DNA of 55,726 nt, taken from positions 1 through 55,726 of the forward strand of contig JAGVEX010000016.1 of assembly GCA_020057885.1 (NCBI GenBank), in the 5' to 3' direction. A program made the translations under genes and the position numbers. Of this stretch, positions 10,421-42,408 are shown in pieces; the first letter of the stretch is position 1, and each line of letters starts with the position of its first letter. Under the pieces are notes generated by a model. It had not been told where the DNA came from and ran no database searches. It was given only the letters and a program-made list of their open reading frames with translations. Origin of the DNA: a bacterium (lineage in GTDB: Bacteria > Patescibacteriota > Patescibacteriia > Veblenbacterales > UBA10138).

Positions 10421-11116
10421 ATGGATAAAAGACAGCATAATCTGTTAGCCGAAGTGGTGCGAAGCTATATACGCGAAGCAGAGCCAGTTGGCTCTAAAGC
10501 GTTAGAAGGGGCTTTGGGTGTAAGTTCGGCTACTATCCGTAATGACATGGCTGAATTGGAGGAGCAAGGTTTTTTGGCCCAACCATACACTTCAGCCGGC
10601 CGAGTGCCGACTTTAAAAGGTTATCAATTTTTTATTGATAATTTATTGGAAGCGCGCGAGCCTAAAATAACAGAACAAAGACTTTTAAAAGATTTAGTGA
10701 AACAATTGCAAGCCTCTCACGAAGCTGTGGTTAAAAATTTAGCGCGCAAGTTAGCCGAACTAGCGGGTGAGGCAGTGGTAGTAGGTTTTGCACCTTACGA
10801 CGTATACTATACTGGTTTAGCTAATTTATTTGAACAGCCTGAGTTTGCTGAGGTCAATATGGTGCGCCATATTGGCAAAGTGATTGATAATTTAGACCAA
10901 GCTATGGCTAAACTTTATCATGATACTAACCATAATGAAGAAGTGGGGATAAAAATTGGTTTATCTAATCCTTTTGGCGAAGGTTGTGCCTTAATATTTA
11001 CCAGTTGCCGTAATCTCGAAACGCGTAGCTTAATTGGTCTGCTTGGCCCTATTCGAATGGATTATGATGCTCATATTGGCAGATTGCAATATATAAAATC
11101 ACTTTTCACAATTTAA
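10421..11116 (+). CDS. hrcA: Heat-inducible transcription repressor (short form)
   Basis: EPVGSK, SSATIRNDMAELE, TSAGRVPT and LGPIRMDY; adjacent CIRCE. Confidence 0.95.
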   Translation: MDKRQHNLLAEVVRSYIREAEPVGSKALEGALGVSSATIRNDMAELEEQGFLAQPYTSAGRVPTLKGYQFFIDNLLEAREPKITEQRLLKDLVKQLQASHEAVVKNLARKLAELAGEAVVVGFAPYDVYYTGLANLFEQPEFAEVNMVRHIGKVIDNLDQAMAKLYHDTNHNEEVGIKIGLSNPFGEGCALIFTSCRNLETRSLIGLLGPIRMDYDAHIGRLQYIKSLFTI

Positions 11117-11119
11117 AAT

Positions 11120-11623
11120 ATGAATAATGATGAATCAGAATTAAAAGAGAAAATTCCAACTCAAGCATCGGCCCCAGTGTCGGCCGAAGGCGAGCCAGAT
11201 TTAGCGCGACAATATTTGGAGGGCTGGCAGCGCGCTAAAGCAGATTATGCAAATTTAAAGCGCGAAACCGAAAGTAGAATGCAAGATTTGGTTAAATATG
11301 CCAACGCCGAACTTTTAAAAGAGTTATTGCCGCTAGTTGATTATTTTAAGCACGCGCTTAAAAGCGTCCCCACCGAGCATAAAGGGGATTCCTGGGTAGA
11401 GGGTATTCGGCATATTCAATCTAAACTGGAACAAGTATTGGCGTATTATGGAGTTAAAGAGCTTGAAGTAGTGGGAGAAAAATTTGATCCGGCCTTTCAT
11501 GAGGCAGTTGGTGAAGTGGAAAATTCAGGCGAGTCTGGTGGTATAATAGTAGAGGAAATTAGAACAGGTTTTATGTTACACAATAAGCTATTACAGGTAG
11601 CGCGGGTGAAAGTAGCTAAATAA
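11120..11623 (+). CDS. grpE: Nucleotide exchange factor GrpE
   Basis: RAKADYANLKR, LLPLVD, GEKFDPAFHEAV and ARVKV. Confidence 0.95.
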   Translation: MNNDESELKEKIPTQASAPVSAEGEPDLARQYLEGWQRAKADYANLKRETESRMQDLVKYANAELLKELLPLVDYFKHALKSVPTEHKGDSWVEGIRHIQSKLEQVLAYYGVKELEVVGEKFDPAFHEAVGEVENSGESGGIIVEEIRTGFMLHNKLLQVARVKVAK

Positions 11624-11986: not shown

Positions 11987-12409
11987 ATGTCAATTGTACG
12001 TTGGACACCAATGTTTCCTGCACTCGAAGAGTTTGATAAATTTTTTGACGATTTTTCTCCTATGAATCGCATGGCAAATTTTGTGCCTGCCCTGGATGTT
12101 TATCAAACTAAAGATGATGTAGTGGTAGAGGCGCCGCTTGCCGGCATAGATCCAGCCAAGGTGAGTATCTCCATTGAGAATGATGTTTTGACTATTGAGG
12201 GTCAAAGCGAGCACAAGAGCGAGGTGGATGAGAAGAATTATTACCGCAAAGAGGTGCGCTGTGGCTCGTTTCATCGTTCCGTGGCTTTACCTGCCGCAGT
12301 GAATGGCGATAAAGCTAAAGCGACTTATGAAAAAGGTGTGCTTAAAATTAGTATTCCGAAAGAGGAGAGGGCAAAACCAAAAACTGTCAAAGTTGAGATA
12401 AAGGATTAG
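11987..12409 (+). CDS. Hsp20/alpha-crystallin small heat-shock protein
   Basis: PALDVYQ, GSFHRSVALP, AxYEKGVLKISIPK and a C-terminal VxV motif. Confidence 0.95.
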   Translation: MSIVRWTPMFPALEEFDKFFDDFSPMNRMANFVPALDVYQTKDDVVVEAPLAGIDPAKVSISIENDVLTIEGQSEHKSEVDEKNYYRKEVRCGSFHRSVALPAAVNGDKAKATYEKGVLKISIPKEERAKPKTVKVEIKD

Positions 12410-12547: not shown

Positions 12548-13069
12548 TTACGTTTTGTTGTTTATGGTTTTACTTGGTTTCCATTCTTTAATGATTAGTA
12601 TGATAAGAAGAAGTAAAAATAAAGAAAAGAAAGTTATAACAAAGCCTTGTAGCCCTGGTTTATTACCACCATCATAATAAATAGATGTAATAGCGCTTAC
12701 ACACCAACAGGAAATAATGAGAAATATAAAAGTACTGAGAATTTTCGATCGTAATAAACTAGCGGATTGTTTGTTTGAAGGAGTTGTTAGTTGTTTTTTT
12801 CGCCAAGTGAATTTAATAATTTTGTCCCAGATTTCTTGAGCAAGATCAGACTTCCAAATGCCAAGTATAGCAAGTGGTAGCAATGAAACGTAAAATGATA
12901 GTAAATTTGCAAAAGGCATGACAGAATAAAATTCATCGGCTGATGGTTTTTTATCACTCATGAGGTTTAATAAAAAAATACACCCACTAGCAAAAGCCAC
13001 ATAAAAAACAGCTTCCCCAATTTTTTTCCAGCTAAACCACGAAGGTTTCATTTGTAAAATAGCGACCAT
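12548..13069 (-). CDS. Hypothetical 4-TM membrane protein (orphan cassette inside the heat-shock cluster)
   Basis: Four hydrophobic segments; SD AAAGGAG; promoter TTGACA (13155-13150), 17 bp, TAAAAT. Confidence 0.7.
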   Translation of the reverse strand: MVAILQMKPSWFSWKKIGEAVFYVAFASGCIFLLNLMSDKKPSADEFYSVMPFANLLSFYVSLLPLAILGIWKSDLAQEIWDKIIKFTWRKKQLTTPSNKQSASLLRSKILSTFIFLIISCWCVSAITSIYYDGGNKPGLQGFVITFFSLFLLLLIILIIKEWKPSKTINNKT

Positions 13070-13185
13070 ATTAGTCTCCTTTAAATTTGATTTTTGAATA
13101 TATTTATATTGTATTTATTTGTTAAAATTTTAAACTTATTATTAAATTTTGTCAATAATTGTAATTATTAACTTATTAAAATCAT

Positions 13186-15105
13186 ATGCCAAAAATATTA
13201 GGAATAGATTTAGGAACAACTAACTCTTGTATGGCCATCATCGAAGGTGGTGAGCCTAAGGTGTTAGAAAATAAAGAAGGCGCGCGCACCACGCCATCTG
13301 TTATAGCACAAGCCAAATCGGGTGAGCGCCTGGTTGGTTTGCTGGCTAAGCGCCAAGCAGTTACGAATCACGAGAATACGCTTTATTCCATTAAGCGCCT
13401 TATTGGCCGCCGCTGGGACGATCCAGAAGTTCAGCGTGATTTAAAAGTGTTACCGTTTAAGTTGGTAAAATCGGGTGAGGGAGTAAAAGTTGCTATGGGC
13501 GGCAAAGAATATAGTCCGCAGGAAATTTCCGCCATGGTATTGCAAAAAATGAAAGCTGATGCTGAAGAAAAGACTGGTGAAAAGATTACCGAAGCAGTAA
13601 TTACCGTACCGGCTTATTTTGACGATTCACAGCGCCAAGCTACCAAAGACGCCGGTGAAATTGCCGGTCTTAAAGTGCGGCGTATTATTAACGAACCTAC
13701 AGCCGCGGCTTTGGCCTATGGGTTTGATAAAAAAAAGGATGAAAAAATCGCAGTGTACGATCTTGGCGGTGGTACTTTTGATATTTCGGTGTTGGAAGTT
13801 TCAGCTGACACAGTAGAGGTTAAGGCTACCAACGGTGATACGCATTTGGGTGGCGATGATTTTGATCAGCGTATTATTCACTGGATTGTGGACGAATTTA
13901 AAAAAGATACATGTGTGGATTTATCCAAAGATAATTTAGCGCTACAACGCGTAAAAGAATCAGCGGAAAAAGCTAAAATTGAACTTTCCACCTCAATGGA
14001 AACGGAAATCAATCAGCCGTTCATTACTTCCGATGCCTCTGGCCCTAAGCATTTGGTAATGAAAATGACACGCGCCAAACTGGAGGAATTAGTGAACGAT
14101 TTAGTGCAAAAAACTTTAGAGCCGACTAAAAAAGCTTTGCAGGATGCCGGTTTAACCGTGGGACAGCTTAACGAGGTAGTTTTGGTTGGCGGTATGACTC
14201 GTATGCCGCTAGTGCTAAAAACTGTGGAAAAATTCTTTGGTAAAAAACCAAATGTGTCAGTGAATCCCGATGAAGTTGTGGCAGTGGGTGCGGCCGTGCA
14301 AGCTGGTGTTTTACAGGGTGAAGTGCGCGACGTACTATTGCTTGACGTAACTCCGCTTTCACTTGGCATTGAAACTTTGGGTGGCGTAATGACCAAATTA
14401 ATAGATCGTAATACCACTGTGCCAACCTCCAAGAGTCAAATTTTTTCTACCGCAGCCGATGGCCAAACCAGTGTGGAAATTCATGTGTTACAGGGTGAAC
14501 GCGAATTTGCGCCCGATAATAAAACCTTAGGCCGGTTTATTTTGGATGGTATTCCACCAGCCCCGCGCGGTATGCCGCAAGTGGAAGTATCTTTTGATAT
14601 AGATGCCAACGGTATTCTCTCGGTAAAAGCCAAAGATAAAGCGACCAGCAAAGAGCAAAAAATTACTATCACAGCTTCTAGTGGCCTTTCTAAAGATGAA
14701 GTGGAAAAAATGAAGAAAGAGGCAGAACTGCACGCGGAAGATGATAAAAAGAAGCGCGAACTTATAGATATGAAAAATACGGCAGAATCTACTGTGTATC
14801 AAACTGAGAAAATGCTAAAAGAGCAGGGCGACAAAGTGCCGGCTGATATTAAAAAAGATGTGGAAGAAAAATTAGAAGCTGTGAGAAAAATTAAGGACGC
14901 CGAAGATGTAGCTACAATTAAATCAGCGCTGGATGCTTTACAGCAGTCTGTAATTAAGATTGGCGAGGCAATGTATAAAGCTCAATCAGCCTCCGCGCAA
15001 GGCTCCGGCGGATCTTCGACCGGTTCAGAGCAGTCCACTGGTCAATCAGCAGAGGATAAGAAAGATGAGCCCATTAGTGGGCAGTATGAGGAGGTTAAGA
15101 AGTAA
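13186..15105 (+). CDS. dnaK: Chaperone DnaK (Hsp70)
   Basis: [25 protein letters not shown] and [11 protein letters not shown]. Confidence 0.99.
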
Positions 15106-15113
15106 TTAAGTAG

Positions 15114-15137
15114 GGCGCCCCGCATACGCGGGGCGCC
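15114..15137. repeat. Perfect GC-rich hairpin after dnaK (terminator/stabiliser or REP-like)
   Basis: ggcgccccgc-atac-gcggggcgcc; no adjacent U-tract. Confidence 0.6.
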
Positions 15138-15182
15138 TAGATTCTAAATTGTCATTCTTAATTTTTACAAACGTTCTTTGAA

Positions 15183-15573
15183 ATAAAAAACTGGCCACCG
15201 AATATGCAAGTGACCAGTATGAGATGACAATCCGCGGGGTGGAGATTCTTTGCCAGGAAAAGCTCACGCAACTTGTCTTTTCTCTTCAAGAAGAATTGAC
15301 CTCCACCACCATTAAGGAGGTAATAGGGTTAGCGCTATGAAGATAGCAGACGTTGTAGTTTAGCTACTTGGCGTCACTTCCATGGGTTCCCCTTGTTATA
15401 TATTTTGGCTCGGGCTCCCTCCTTAGCTATAGTGTGCCAGTGTCATTACTTCCTGGCAGCCCCTAAAAAGTGTTACTACTGGATTGTCGTGGAGGTATAC
15501 TTCATGATAGCCTCCTTTGTTTGTTGTTACGCCGCCAGCCGAGTACACTATTAAAGTACAGGTCAGCAACTTA
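15183..15573 (-). ncRNA. Candidate structured RNA / micro-ORF transcript of unknown family
   Basis: Promoter TTGACT (15608-15603), 17 bp, TAAGAT (15585-15580); terminator ctggtcac/gtggccag plus U-tract (15217-15183); three nested long-range helices; no long ORF. Confidence 0.55.
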
Positions 15574-15631
15574 AGCATTATCTTATTCCAAATCAAATAA
15601 TTAGTCAATTTACAATTTTATTCCATATTAT

Positions 15632-15664
15632 TACTTTCTAATTTGCCTAAATAGGAAAGTAGTA
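15632..15664. promoter_or_regulatory. Palindromic element, copy A
   Basis: tactttctaattt-gcct-aaataggaaagta(gta); inverted copy of 18327-18359 (30/33 identical). Confidence 0.7.
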
Positions 15665-15722
15665 GAAATAAAAATATTTAAAATTTATTCATTATTCATA
15701 ATTCTTAATTCCAAATTAATTT

Positions 15723-15747
15723 AAAACTCTTACTCTTAACTCTTACT
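15723..15747 (+). repeat. 25-bp (ACTCTT)x3 element, copy 1
   Basis: aaaactcttactcttaactcttact, identical to 23200-23224; ends 7 nt before an ATG. Confidence 0.8.
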
Positions 15748-15754
15748 TAACTAT

Positions 15755-16042
15755 ATGCCTAACGAACAACAGCAAATCCAAGTCAAAATCAGCGATAAGG
15801 TGCTAAAAGGTGTTTATGCCAATTTGGCGCAAATTGCCCACAGCAAAGAAGAATTTGTTATAGATTTTATGACCATGATGCCACCTCAGGGTATTGTAGG
15901 CGCGCGGGTTTATATGAATCCAGCCCATGCCAAGCGCTTAGGGCATGCTTTGCTCGAGAATGTAAAAAAATATGAAGATCAATTTGGCAAGATTGAAGAC
16001 GTTGCCCAACAAACTCCAGAAGTTGGCTTTAAAACCAGCTAG
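15755..16042 (+). CDS. DUF3467-family protein
   Basis: GVYANLAQIAHSKEEFVIDF, PAHAKRL and YEDQFGKI pattern. Confidence 0.85.
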   Translation: MPNEQQQIQVKISDKVLKGVYANLAQIAHSKEEFVIDFMTMMPPQGIVGARVYMNPAHAKRLGHALLENVKKYEDQFGKIEDVAQQTPEVGFKTS

Positions 16043-16129
16043 TTTTTGACAATTTAAATATTTTTTGTTAATCTTGGTACAAATTGCACACTTAAATTAA
16101 CTAAAAATAAACATCAATAGGAGAAATAT

Positions 16130-16426
16130 ATGTCTGATAAACAAAATACTGATCAGTTAGTTGTAGATGAAGGTGGACAATATGCATTTTTTCCACCATC
16201 AGATGGTACCAGAAAGTCTGGACCTATTGGACCGACTGAGGCGGATAGAGTTATTGCAACTATTAGATCAGGACAAATAGAACTTGATATACATCAAAAA
16301 AAAGAAGATTCATGGGAAATTTCAAAGGATTATCTTAGTTTTCGAGTACAAGAGGAGTTAGTAGCAATAGATCCGGATTCTTCAGATATTCCTGTTTTTA
16401 AAGAAGAAGAATCCAGTTTTTTATGA
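16130..16426 (+). CDS. Hypothetical acidic protein (orphan cassette)
   Basis: SD AGGAG; promoter TTGACA (16046), 17 bp, TAATCT; terminator aaggcatcg/cgatgcctt (16439-16480). Confidence 0.65.
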   Translation: MSDKQNTDQLVVDEGGQYAFFPPSDGTRKSGPIGPTEADRVIATIRSGQIELDIHQKKEDSWEISKDYLSFRVQEELVAIDPDSSDIPVFKEEESSFL

Positions 16427-16488
16427 ATCATTTAAAGTAAGGCATCGTTAATAATTTTTACTGCGATGCCTTTTCATTTTTTGTAATT

Positions 16489-17619
16489 ATGGCTAGTAAA
16501 GATTATTATCAAACATTAGGAATATCAAAATCCGCTTCGCCAGATGAAGTTAAAAAAGCTTTTCGTAAACTGGCACACCAGCATCATCCGGATAAGCACG
16601 GTGGTTCCGATGCTAAGTTTAAAGAGATAAACGAGGCTTACCAAGTGCTTTCTGATTCCCAAAAGCGGCAACAGTATGACCAATTTGGCGCTAATTTTGA
16701 AAGTGCTGGCGGCCCTGGTGGTTTTAATTGGCAAGATTTTGCGCGCGCGCAACAGGGTGGCTTTAATCAAAGTAACGTTAATTTTGATTTTGGCGACATT
16801 GGTGATTTGTTTGGTGACTTTTTTGGCGGGGGAGCCGGTCGCCGCTCCAGACGCGCCGGACCGCGGCGTGGGGCGGATGTGGAGTTTGTCACAGCGATTG
16901 ATTTTCGTGAAGCTGTTTTTGGGGTGGAAAAAGTTTTGCGTTTTGAAAAATCTATAGTGTGCAATCATTGCAAAGGCTCGGGCGCCGAACCGGGGGCTAA
17001 AATAAACACTTGCTCAACCTGCGGCGGCGCTGGGCAAGTAGAGCAAATGCAGCGCACTTTTTTGGGCGCTATGCGTACAGTGGCTGTTTGTCCAACCTGC
17101 GGCGGCGAAGGGAAAAGCGCGGAAAAAGCTTGTACCCATTGCCACGGCAAGGGGAGTGAAGTAGGAGTAAGAGAACTTAAGGTCCAAATTCCCGCTGGTA
17201 TTGATAATGGGCAAGCTATTAGGCTTTCGGGCGAAGGCGAGCCAGGCGTCAAAAGCGGACCGGCTGGCGATTTACATTTAATTGTGCAAGTTAGGCCCGA
17301 TAAGCTATTTAAACGCGAAGGTTACAATTTAACCACTGCCCGGGAAATAAGTATGTCACTTGCCAGTTTGGGCGGCAAGGTTAAATTAGCCACGCTTGAT
17401 GGTGATATTTATTTAAAAATTCCAGCCGGCACGCAAAGCGGCAAGATTTTTAAGTTAGAAAGCAAGGGCGTGCCGCATTTACGCGGTAAGAATAGAGGCG
17501 ATATTTTAGTAACAATTTATGTAAAAACTCCGGAAAAACTTAGTAAAAAAGAAAAAGAATCAATCCGCGCCTTGCCCAAATTAGCGGGTGAGGAAATAGA
17601 TGATTTCGGGTGGTTTTAA
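16489..17619 (+). CDS. dnaJ: Chaperone DnaJ
   Basis: J-domain HPD, G/F-rich region and four CxxCxGxG repeats. Confidence 0.98.
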   Translation: MASKDYYQTLGISKSASPDEVKKAFRKLAHQHHPDKHGGSDAKFKEINEAYQVLSDSQKRQQYDQFGANFESAGGPGGFNWQDFARAQQGGFNQSNVNFDFGDIGDLFGDFFGGGAGRRSRRAGPRRGADVEFVTAIDFREAVFGVEKVLRFEKSIVCNHCKGSGAEPGAKINTCSTCGGAGQVEQMQRTFLGAMRTVAVCPTCGGEGKSAEKACTHCHGKGSEVGVRELKVQIPAGIDNGQAIRLSGEGEPGVKSGPAGDLHLIVQVRPDKLFKREGYNLTTAREISMSLASLGGKVKLATLDGDIYLKIPAGTQSGKIFKLESKGVPHLRGKNRGDILVTIYVKTPEKLSKKEKESIRALPKLAGEEIDDFGWF

Positions 17620-17630
17620 ACCACCCTTTT
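17608..17630 (+). terminator. Terminator overlapping the dnaJ stop
   Basis: gggtggtt/aaccaccc followed by tttt. Confidence 0.6.
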
Positions 17631-17639
17631 GTTTACTCC

Positions 17640-17668
17640 TTGACAGTTTTAATTTTTAGTATTATAAT
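17640..17668 (+). promoter_or_regulatory. Perfect-consensus sigma70 promoter
   Basis: TTGACA (17640-17645), 17 bp, TATAAT (17663-17668). Confidence 0.85.
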
Positions 17669-17756
17669 GTATTATTAAATAAAAATTCAAAAATAATCAA
17701 CTAAAATAACTAAAAAACAAACAAAATAAAAAAATCAAAGATTGGAGTTTAATAAA

Positions 17757-18200
17757 ATGAACCAAATGGAAGTTTCCGGCAAAAGTCTCGTAACAATTTT
17801 GCACTTGTTATTATCTGAGATGTTCTATCTTTTGGTTATGGCGAATAAATATTCGCTTGATGATTCCGAGAAAATTCTTAATTTATTACAAAAATATTGC
17901 TCCGATAAATCCGGGGTGACCAGTGATGAAATAAAAGCCTTTTCGATGTGTTATGGGTTAAGAATTGAGGGCATCAATGATTTTAAACAGAGACTAGATT
18001 GTTTCGATGTTGCCAAAGAGATGGGTATATCACCATCGAAAGTTACACAACTTACGCATTCCTTCATTGGTAAAATTAAAAATTCTCATTTTTGCATTGA
18101 ATTTCATTCAATGTTCAGAGCATTCAAATATGCTGACGATGGCCAAAAACTGCAAGACGTTGAGCTAATTCAAGTCGTAACCGAGATAGTAGAATTGTAG
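17757..18200 (+). CDS. Orphan with a sigma70 region-4-like HTH (ATG at 17757 after GGAG preferred)
   Basis: FSMCYGL...DVAKEMGISPSKVTQLTHSFIGKIK resembles region 4.2 (RFGL...EIAxxxGVSxERVRQIxxxALxKL); terminator at ~18223-18262. Confidence 0.6.
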   Translation: MNQMEVSGKSLVTILHLLLSEMFYLLVMANKYSLDDSEKILNLLQKYCSDKSGVTSDEIKAFSMCYGLRIEGINDFKQRLDCFDVAKEMGISPSKVTQLTHSFIGKIKNSHFCIEFHSMFRAFKYADDGQKLQDVELIQVVTEIVEL

Positions 18201-18326: not shown

Positions 18327-18361
18327 TACTACTTTCCTACTTAGGCAAATAGGAAAGTAGT
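18327..18361. promoter_or_regulatory. Palindromic element, copy B
   Basis: (tac)tactttcctactt-aggc-aaataggaaagta, 20 bp upstream of TTGACA (18380). Confidence 0.7.
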
Positions 18362-41922: not shown

Positions 41923-41935
41923 ATGTTTAATTTGC

Positions 41936-42408
41936 CAGATAAACCAATAAGCCGAATTTTGTATTCCGATTTGCATCGGAACAGCGACTATCTATCTTGT
42001 TCCTAATTCGCATTAGGACTCTAGCTACCAACCCGTCCCGCCTAGCGGGACCTACTTGGTATTGCACCGGGTAGAGTTTGCCTAGCCCTCCAAATCACTT
42101 TGGAAGCTGGTGAGCTCTTACTTTACCCGCCGAAGCGAGCTATCCCGCGCGTAGGCGGGCTCACCGTTTCACCCATCACCCCGTAAAATTAATTTTGCAA
42201 TTAATCACGTGGCTGGTTTATTTTCTGTTGTACTTGTCCTGCGGCCTTGTTACCAAGGCCAACGGCTCCTGTTAGGAGCTACCCCTCCCTAAAAGCGGGA
42301 GCGCTATGGTGTTCGGACTTTCCTCCCCTCGACAAGCTCGGGGTAAACCCCAAAGTATATTAGGGTTTGTCTTGAGCTTGCCGAAAGGCAATCGCCTAGA
42401 TTTACCTA
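41936..42408 (-). ncRNA. rnpB: RNase P RNA (ends approximate)
   Basis: The minus strand has GAGGAAAGUCC, GGGUGAAACGG, GGCAAACUC and 3' ACAAAAUUCGGCUUAU. P1 pairing is seen, with TTGACT upstream (42444-42439). Confidence 0.95.

Follow-up and report, generated by a model that had tools for sequence, protein, structure and literature searches.

The orphan structured non-coding RNAs (ncRNAs) of bacteria, such as the raiA motif RNA, OLE, ROOL and GOLLD, are encoded as stand-alone transcripts whose neighbouring genes give no clue to function, and OLE, ROOL and GOLLD are larger than the ∼170–250-nucleotide (nt) core of the element described below. Short open reading frames (ORFs) also occur together with a structured part in one transcript, as in the dual-function small RNAs RNAIII and SgrS, and the mRNAs of hok-type type I toxins combine a long-range 5'–3' helix with a sequestered Shine–Dalgarno (SD) sequence. 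OLE, ROOL and GOLLD are reported to form RNA-only homo-oligomers (PMC12286853). Here, an element at positions 15183–15608 on the minus strand of a 55,726-nt stretch of DNA (the window) was compared with these systems. The window is contig C5 of a Patescibacteria genome of 0.95 Mb in 21 contigs (G000; GenBank assembly GCA_020057885.1, contig JAGVEX010000016.1). It seems rather likely that the element is a separate gene for a structured ncRNA of a family not described so far, and that RNA is probably functional, with matching base-pair swaps kept in two related genomes. The case is built from promoter and terminator signals, the pattern of conservation, helices that covary and the lack of any ORF shared between copies. 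Four copies were found in three of 21 genomes of the family, namely one in G000, one in G008 and two diverged tandem copies, A and B, in G009 (G009A and G009B).

A preliminary description of the locus had proposed a complete minus-strand transcription unit, and signals for both of its ends were recovered. A promoter scan confirmed a sigma-70-like promoter at 15580–15608 (−), in which a −35 box, TTGACT (15608–15603), is separated by a 17-nt spacer from a −10 box, TAAGAT (15585–15580); over 14900–15900 the scan returned five promoter-like sites, compared with 2.4 ± 1.5 in shuffled sequences. The minimum free energy (MFE) fold contains an intrinsic terminator at 15183–15218 (−), comprising a 10-bp stem with a 9-nt loop (15190–15218) followed by a U run (15184–15189), which was not listed by a simple terminator scan because that scan accepts loops of 3–8 nt only. 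With a start placed ∼7 nt past the −10 box and an end at the U run, the predicted transcript would span 15183–15573 (−), or ∼390 nt. An equivalent promoter layout lies upstream of the copies in G008 (TTGACA-17-TAAGAT) and G009B (TTGACT-17-TATGTT), and similar terminators close all of the other copies. The unit had also been described as richer in G+C than other intergenic DNA, which was borne out by values of 0.43–0.47 across 15100–15599 versus 0.21–0.28 in the spacers at 13000–13199, 15600–15799 and 17600–17799.

When the copies were compared, invariant blocks (GGGCUG, AGCCC, CCCA and CAUAGCGCUAAC) were found to be set among helices whose sequences differ between copies yet remain complementary. 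The closing helix, P1, pairs a 5' strand, GACAAUCC (15481–15488, −), with a 3' strand, GGAUUGUC (15226–15233, −), located 8 nt before the terminator stem. The corresponding strands are AGAUGAUUC/GAAUCAUCU in G009B, GCGGUCUG/CAGACUGC in G008 and UUCGGUU/AGCCGAA in G009A, and in all copies P1 lies 15–23 nt before GGGCUG and 1–8 nt before the terminator. Within P1, a local hairpin, P2 (GCCAG...CUGGC, 15436–15457, −), has a counterpart at that place in all four copies, with sequences that are all different. P3 pairs AAGGAGG (15418–15424, −) with CCUCCUU (15314–15320, −), and is represented by GAGAAGG/CCUUCUC in G008, GAGGGGG/CCCCCUU in G009B and, with one A-C mismatch, GGAGAGG/CCUCCCC in G009A. 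P4 joins GGGG (15389–15392, −) to CCCU (15325–15328, −), the pair in G008 being GGCG/CGCC, and the P5 hairpin (GAAG...CUUC, 15339–15380, −), which ends immediately before AUAGCGC, carries a lineage-specific insert that ranges from 4 to ∼80 nt among the copies. The 3' hairpin domain, P6 (GGUGGAG...CUCCACC, 15238–15307, −), likewise varies in size. The invariant block CAUAGCGCUAAC (15328–15339, −) occupies the internal loop between P5 and P4 and holds an 8-nt palindrome, UAGCGCUA. Finally, invariant GGGCU (15458–15462, −) and AGCCC (15412–15416, −), present in all four copies, form a candidate pseudoknot, so termed because their pairing would cross P3.

The preliminary description had listed three nested helices, corresponding to P1, to a second helix at 15251–15259/15450–15458 (UGCCAGGAA/UUCCUGGCA) and to a third at 15313–15320/15418–15425 (UAAGGAGG/CCUCCUUA), which coincides with P3. 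All three are perfectly complementary in sequence, and an alternative pairing that had been pointed out (15299–15306/15489–15496) is also present. The first and third are conserved with compensatory changes in all four copies. The second, in contrast, is peculiar to G000, where it comprises 10 bp versus no more than 6 bp in the other three copies, and it competes with the local hairpin P2.

Part of the support for the comparative fold came from an alignment that had not been fitted to it. RNAalifold, applied to an unfitted MAFFT alignment (A1), predicted the nested helices P3, P4 and P5 unaided, with eight of 16 pairs changed on both sides. In the P3–P5 string, 84.7% of cells pair, compared with 49–71% when the partners are slid, and the covariation score of 0.389 (versus 0.246 ± 0.047) was reached by one of 500 shuffles. 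A curated table of P1–P5 and the pseudoknot contains 132 cells, of which 131 are canonical pairs, and 35 pair columns, of which 19 are changed on both sides; five G-U cells fit the minus (RNA) strand only. For P1, which differs in sequence from copy to copy but keeps its place, window-shuffle p values in the four copies were 0.004, 0.0016, 0.017 and 0.22 (windows of 30–32 by 28 nt). Folding energies of the homologues gave z-scores of −3.2 (G008), −2.4 (G009A) and −3.2 (G009B), and, of the 34 comparative pairs in each, a plain MFE fold recovered 30 in both G008 and G009A. Compensatory helices of the kind that mark a conserved structured ncRNA are thus present in the homologues, as judged from four sequences in three genomes.

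A number of observations weigh against the reading of the element as a structured RNA gene. The MFE of the G000 element is −110.4 kcal/mol, with a z-score of −1.25 (12 of 100 shuffles fold equally; z = −1.0 in a second run), compared with −1.57 for its opposite strand, and plain MFE folding recovers only eight of 35 comparative pairs in G000 and nine of 32 in G009B. P1, P2 and the exact registers of the helices were set by eye, and in the wholly divergent P1 and P2 any hairpin at the same place scores as compensatory. The window-shuffle p values for P1 are optimistic because the windows were chosen after the helices had been seen. The GGGCU/AGCCC pairing never varies, and so is a candidate that offers no covariation test. 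Only four copies are available, from three metagenome-assembled genomes and with two in one genome, so that the counts are small and the copies not independent; a young or selfish element would likewise be compatible with their narrow and patchy spread at a hot spot for insertion. Of 5000 shuffles, 3932 contain an 8-nt palindrome, and with palindromes so common by chance, dimerisation via UAGCGCUA is only an idea. The transcript is predicted from the DNA sequence, and none of the results points to a partner, target or ligand. The test of folding energy that had been suggested for the G000 element thus gave a value typical of shuffles, and by itself counts against a structured RNA; comparison with the relatives reverses that verdict, the predicted fold being beyond chance when assessed from the homologues, although not from the G000 sequence alone.

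The homologues themselves were not apparent from overall similarity. A DNA search with the whole element in 61 genomes (E ≤ 0.001) yielded no more than an AT-rich match of 37 nt in G047, treated as chance, and nhmmer and blastn comparisons with the regions downstream of dnaK in relatives gave only weak colinear matches in L041, which led to G008. The G008 unit, of ∼220 nt, occupies the corresponding place and strand between its own promoter and terminator, and shares two blocks that are identical to those of G000. A search with the main block as a motif then gave matches in three of the 21 family genomes and revealed the tandem copies of G009; overall, the RNA occurs in three of the 14 family genera. 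R1, a covariance model built on the core, retrieved the four copies with E = 3e-31 to 5e-20 and nothing else with E < 0.05 in the 21 family genomes, which are the same genomes as those covered by the 'order' search. Of the weaker R1 matches, that in G015 lacks the conserved blocks, and that in G007 was treated as chance because it falls inside a 246-aa ORF. Among 151 class-sampled genomes (which held three other family genomes but left out G008 and G009), and among 151 phylum-sampled genomes, R1 matched only G000; since these samples were run with stricter filters, the result should be taken as 'not found' as opposed to 'absent'. A class-wide motif scan gave matches in four of 401 genomes, the fourth, G051, with two mismatches, compared with six genomes for a reversed control pattern, and R1 gave no match in L046. 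Motif scans of genome contigs gave real matches only in records of G008 and G009, and a scan of viral contigs gave none. The exact motif was also encountered in 38 metagenome loci, all of which were rejected as homologues (R1 E ≥ 0.18 for all). By eye, ∼30 of these 38 loci (L047–L084) share an unrelated repeat of at least ∼150 nt, with CCATAGCGCTAACCCTACTAAC followed by TAACCC-like units, and the repeat has inverted copies in some contigs. Contigs from three DNA runs proved near-identical to the locus, with no informative variants.

The possibility that the element belongs to a known RNA family was examined with Rfam 15 (4227 models, at gathering score or with looser E-value cut-offs). A cmscan search of 14000–17000 at E ≤ 1 returned only RsmY, on the dnaK terminator and below threshold (20.8 bits versus a cut-off of 57), and searches with the element alone and with both G009 copies at E ≤ 10 gave only noise (mir-684 at 15.3 bits, SNORD26 and Hrs13). 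ARAGORN found no genes in the window. The transfer-messenger RNA (tmRNA) of the genome lies elsewhere, at C6:55578–55959 (RF00023, 76.6 bits), and the element has no RF00023 match; similarly, RF00010 leaves the element unscored even at E ≤ 10, and the class A RNase P RNA of the genome was located in the window at 41932–42408 (−), with 177 bits. The models for signal recognition particle (SRP) RNA and 6S RNA (RF00169, RF01854 and RF00013) have no match in G000. A riboswitch would be expected in the 5' leader of the gene that it controls, and no ORF lies on the minus strand either before or after the terminator. That the element had not been recognised as a tmRNA, SRP RNA, 6S RNA, RNase P RNA or riboswitch agrees with these results, and literature searches on ncRNAs and RNA motifs of Patescibacteria and the candidate phyla radiation (CPR), at the level of listings and abstracts, turned up no account of such an RNA. 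Because no described RNA family was matched, the RNA is regarded, on sequence comparison, as new at the family level; together with the conserved loops and covarying stems of the four copies, this agrees with the novel ncRNA that had been put forward.

An identity as SRP RNA was dropped on separate grounds also, in that neither Ffh nor FtsY was detected in the genome and no SRP RNA is therefore expected. RF00169 had no match in any of the 21 family genomes, nor did a search for the Ffh M domain (PF02978) give one. The SRP54 GTPase domain (E ≤ 1e-10) was found in none of 41 relatives and none of 61 phylum-sampled genomes. A tblastn search with E. coli Ffh gave a best E of 1.4, the controls GrpE, L19, TrmD and S16 all being matched, and SecY is present. 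Such an absence is already known, two SRP subunits being reported as missing from many CPR bacteria (PMC8080830).

Coding potential was considered next to this evidence for structure. The absence of a long ORF that had been noted was upheld, the longest inside the element (15423–15608, −) encoding 61 aa from a TTG start within the −35 box, and none of the four small ORFs scanned had a Pfam match. In tblastx comparisons, stretches did not exceed 19 aa between the G000 copy and the others, or 26 aa between any two copies, and were scattered over several frames and both strands; those with the best scores were centred on the invariant nucleotide block. With 306 stop-to-stop frames from the dnaK-downstream regions of relatives, tblastn gave no match above 24 bits. 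The element accordingly has no conserved frame and no likeness to the proteins of its neighbours, as might have been seen in a protein pseudogene.

An accessory 5' module does, nevertheless, contain a potential translation start. In G000 and G009B, ∼90 extra nt before P1 comprise a hairpin (15531–15570, −, in the MFE fold of G000), a hairpin that sequesters an SD sequence, and then a mini-ORF. In the SD hairpin of G000 (15491–15515, −, MFE), an SD-like GGAGG is paired with CCUCC and the AUG lies in the loop, and in G009B there is an equivalent GGAGGC/GUCUCC hairpin. The G000 mini-ORF (15476–15505, −) has nine codons (MKYTSTTIQ) behind AAAGGAGG-N6-AUG and crosses the 5' strand of P1; G009B has an unrelated 12-codon ORF behind AGGAGG-N5-GUG, in matching register over the same strand, and the stop begins exactly 2 nt past P1 in both. 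In G009A, a UUG ORF stops 6 nt after P1, and G008, which lacks the module, has no such ORF.

These features bring to mind a regulatory or dual-function RNA built around the small ORF, in which an SD-guarded mini-ORF, serving as a thermometer or leader peptide, or else a type I toxin mRNA, would be stabilised or gated by the 3' structure. Sequestration of the SD by pairing in G000 and G009B, the position of the stop just past P1 in three copies, the resemblance of a long-range 5'–3' helix with a hidden SD to hok-type mRNAs and the location in a heat-shock cluster all fit such an RNA. Against this, the peptides of 9, 12 and 14 aa are unrelated, G008 keeps the whole core without either module or ORF, the strongest conservation is in the loops of the core as opposed to the ORF, no overlapping antisense gene was seen, and no heat-shock ORF lies downstream on the minus strand. 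This explanation is consequently rated as quite unlikely. A type I toxin would be encoded by a conserved and usually hydrophobic ORF of ∼20–60 aa, and the ORFs behind SD sequences here have nine and 12 codons, are unrelated and have no equivalent in G008; with no ORF conserved, the type I toxin–antitoxin architecture originally suggested is not supported, and of the proposed switchable mRNA there survives only the conjecture that the mini-ORF of G000 and G009B might act as such a switch. Alternatively, the core could sense a ligand in the manner of a riboswitch and set the efficiency of the terminator, such that read-through RNA would be antisense to the 3' end of dnaK. The compact conserved junction, with its invariant loop bases and candidate pseudoknot, the end of P1 1–8 nt before an intrinsic terminator in every copy, and the convergence of the gene with dnaK in G000 and, with a GIY-YIG gene between, in G008, would all suit this proposal. 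It is rendered improbable by the lack of an ORF downstream on the minus strand, of a conserved anti-terminator alternative and of a match to any Rfam riboswitch model, by the strong dnaK terminator hairpin at 15114–15138, which would also block read-through, and by the arrangement in G009, where copy B lies downstream of copy A and is itself succeeded by a palindrome and an AbiU2-like gene in convergent orientation, and not by dnaK.

Two further explanations were considered. The spacer between dnaK and DUF3467 differs between genomes, with GIY-YIG genes in G008 and G002 and other small ORFs or nothing elsewhere, and the RNA is confined to three of 14 family genera, is duplicated in tandem in G009 and adjoins a dispersed palindrome, all of which might be expected of an RNA, whether guide-like scaffold, ribozyme or remnant, that was brought into a variable spacer by a mobile or selfish element. 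That origin is also given a low probability: none of the copies has a gene for a transposase, nuclease or reverse transcriptase beside it, G000 has a single copy, the motif is absent from the viral contigs scanned, no terminal repeats were noticed, and the neighbourhood shared by all three genomes fits vertical descent. The element could, lastly, be non-functional DNA, either the remnant of a decayed gene or a spacer conserved merely through the kinship of the genomes, for which the ordinary folding energy in G000, the small number of homologues and a gene known only as DNA sequence could be cited. It is very unlikely, since the copies have, apart from the blocks, diverged beyond the reach of BLAST and yet their helices stay complementary, the two G009 copies have diverged from each other with the core kept, and neither a conserved frame nor a likeness to neighbouring proteins could be found.

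Returning to the preferred reading, that of a gene for a structured ncRNA, the core of ∼170–250 nt would be organised around a junction closed by the long-range helix P1 and carrying the variable hairpin P2, the P3–P4–P5 stack, the variable 3' hairpin P6 and, possibly, the GGGCU/AGCCC pseudoknot. In the internal loop of the stack, AACCCAU(C)G and AUAGCGCUAA, both invariant, would face each other, and the terminator hairpin beyond P1 probably forms the mature 3' end. It is envisaged that the folded RNA acts in trans, with the invariant loop and the candidate pseudoknot as its working surface, which would most likely be a site for a protein and less likely one that accommodates a small ligand or another molecule of the same RNA. 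Binding of a protein is put forward tentatively, binding of a ligand or self-association is rather unlikely, and catalysis is very improbable. Since OLE, ROOL and GOLLD reportedly form homo-oligomers, the invariant and self-complementary UAGCGCUA would be worth testing for self-association; its self-duplex has a calculated energy of −12.5 kcal/mol, and with the comparative helices imposed as constraints it is predicted to be unpaired.

In the long forms (G000, G009B and perhaps G009A), the 5' module may allow ribosomes to unzip P1, and such opening would tie folding of the core to translation or to temperature, with heat perhaps releasing translation. The fullest version of this scheme, with a small chance of being correct, is a new class of structured RNA gated by translation, in which ribosomes on a heat-labile, SD-guarded mini-ORF unzip the P1 helix that closes a pseudoknotted core, the invariant internal loop possibly being a self-pairing, protein-binding or catalytic site. 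Were this so, the RNA would report the translational or thermal state of the cell from within the heat-shock cluster of an ultra-small bacterium. Irrespective of mechanism, the tiny genomes of Patescibacteria (CPR) leave very little room for dispensable sequence, and a non-coding gene of 220–390 nt that retains a complex fold is therefore likely to matter to the organism. The invariant internal loop, the possible pseudoknot and the modular 5' mini-ORF offer concrete handles for biochemistry. The locus also illustrates how, in an AT-rich genome, a spacer that is rich in G+C and free of ORFs can point to a real RNA despite an unremarkable single-sequence folding energy.

The gene is located in a heat-shock cluster with the order hrcA (10421–11116), grpE (11120–11623), hsp20 (11987–12409), dnaK (13186–15105, +), the RNA element, DUF3467 (15755–16042, +), a 98-aa ORF and dnaJ (16489–17619). 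The dnaK product (HSP70 Pfam match, E = 8e-258) is encoded outside the RNA and convergently to it. In each of the three genomes, the RNA gene has the DUF3467 gene, followed by dnaJ, as its divergent neighbour, with a 112-aa ORF between the RNA and DUF3467 genes in G009. Most family members with a contig that reaches far enough retain the layout in which one variable insert separates dnaK from DUF3467 and another separates DUF3467 from dnaJ. On the plus strand, a promoter-like site at 15602–15631 (TAGTCA-18-TATTAT) probably serves DUF3467–dnaJ, sites of this kind on that strand occurring at the level of shuffles. The −35 boxes of this site and of the RNA promoter overlap at 15602–15608 (TTGACTAA/TTAGTCAA), and a similar overlap was seen by eye in G008 (TTTGTCAA); the two promoters may, on this arrangement, compete for polymerase. 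HrcA is short, at 231 aa, with its C-terminal domain matched only in part, and no canonical CIRCE element was seen by eye upstream of dnaK in 13060–13200.

In relatives (L014–L041), the spacer between dnaK and DUF3467 is a hot spot for insertion, with GIY-YIG genes identified by Pfam in G008 and G002, look-alike ORFs recognised by eye in G012 and G014, and other small ORFs or nothing elsewhere. Two genomes have dnaK matches on two different contigs, with 90% and 70% identity to the DnaK of the window in G008 (C4 and C58) and 80% and 77% in G004 (C23 and C29), which points to a second dnaK–DUF3467 locus or to mixed bins; the RNA copy of G008 is on the contig of the more distant dnaK. In G009, an ORF with a HEPN AbiU2 domain, of the abortive-infection type (E = 1.2e-7), is convergent to copy B (L042:2132–2482, −). 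A 28-nt palindrome, ACTTTCCTA-N10-TAGGAAAGT, has three perfect copies in the genome, at 18331–18358 of the window and at C4:5064–5091 and C13:180016–180043 of G000, together with an imperfect copy adjacent to the RNA gene at 15633–15660, and related palindromes precede DUF3467 in G004 and G007 and follow copy B in G009. A role as an HrcA operator was rejected, since other copies follow greA or lie between two sugar-nucleotide genes, such that the palindrome looks like a dispersed intergenic sequence as opposed to a heat-shock operator.

The element can, finally, be set beside the described systems. Like class A bacterial RNase P RNA (RF00010), it is closed by a helix P1 and has a junction of several helices together with a long-range pseudoknot, the last a candidate only in the present case, and all four copies share the 10-mer CCAUAGCGCU with the RNase P RNA of G000, in which it lies at what is presumably J5/7–P7. 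The order of elements differs, however, and kinship was rejected with the 10-mer at chance level (BLAST E = 0.08–0.13 for three copies; for the G000 copy, 9 nt and E = 0.55). The long-range closing helix and the SD hidden in a hairpin recall hok-type mRNAs, from which the element departs in having neither a conserved or hydrophobic toxin ORF nor a visible antisense gene, and in lacking the ORF module altogether in its shortest copy, that of G008. An SD and start codon held in a hairpin, within a heat-shock cluster, are reminiscent of RNA thermometers such as ROSE and fourU and of leader-peptide attenuators, in which, as here, formation of a helix could be blocked by a short, non-conserved ORF that overlaps it; unlike these, the element has no downstream gene to control, no module in G008 and no match to an Rfam thermometer. 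A short ORF joined to a structured part is also seen in the dual-function small RNAs, from which the element differs in that its peptide is not conserved. It differs from the raiA motif RNA, OLE, ROOL and GOLLD in matching none of their Rfam models and in being known from three Patescibacteria genomes only. It is nevertheless these orphan structured ncRNAs that the element most resembles by analogy, as a predicted stand-alone transcript with several covarying helices, loops more conserved than its stems, a possible pseudoknot and neighbouring genes that give no clue to its function.

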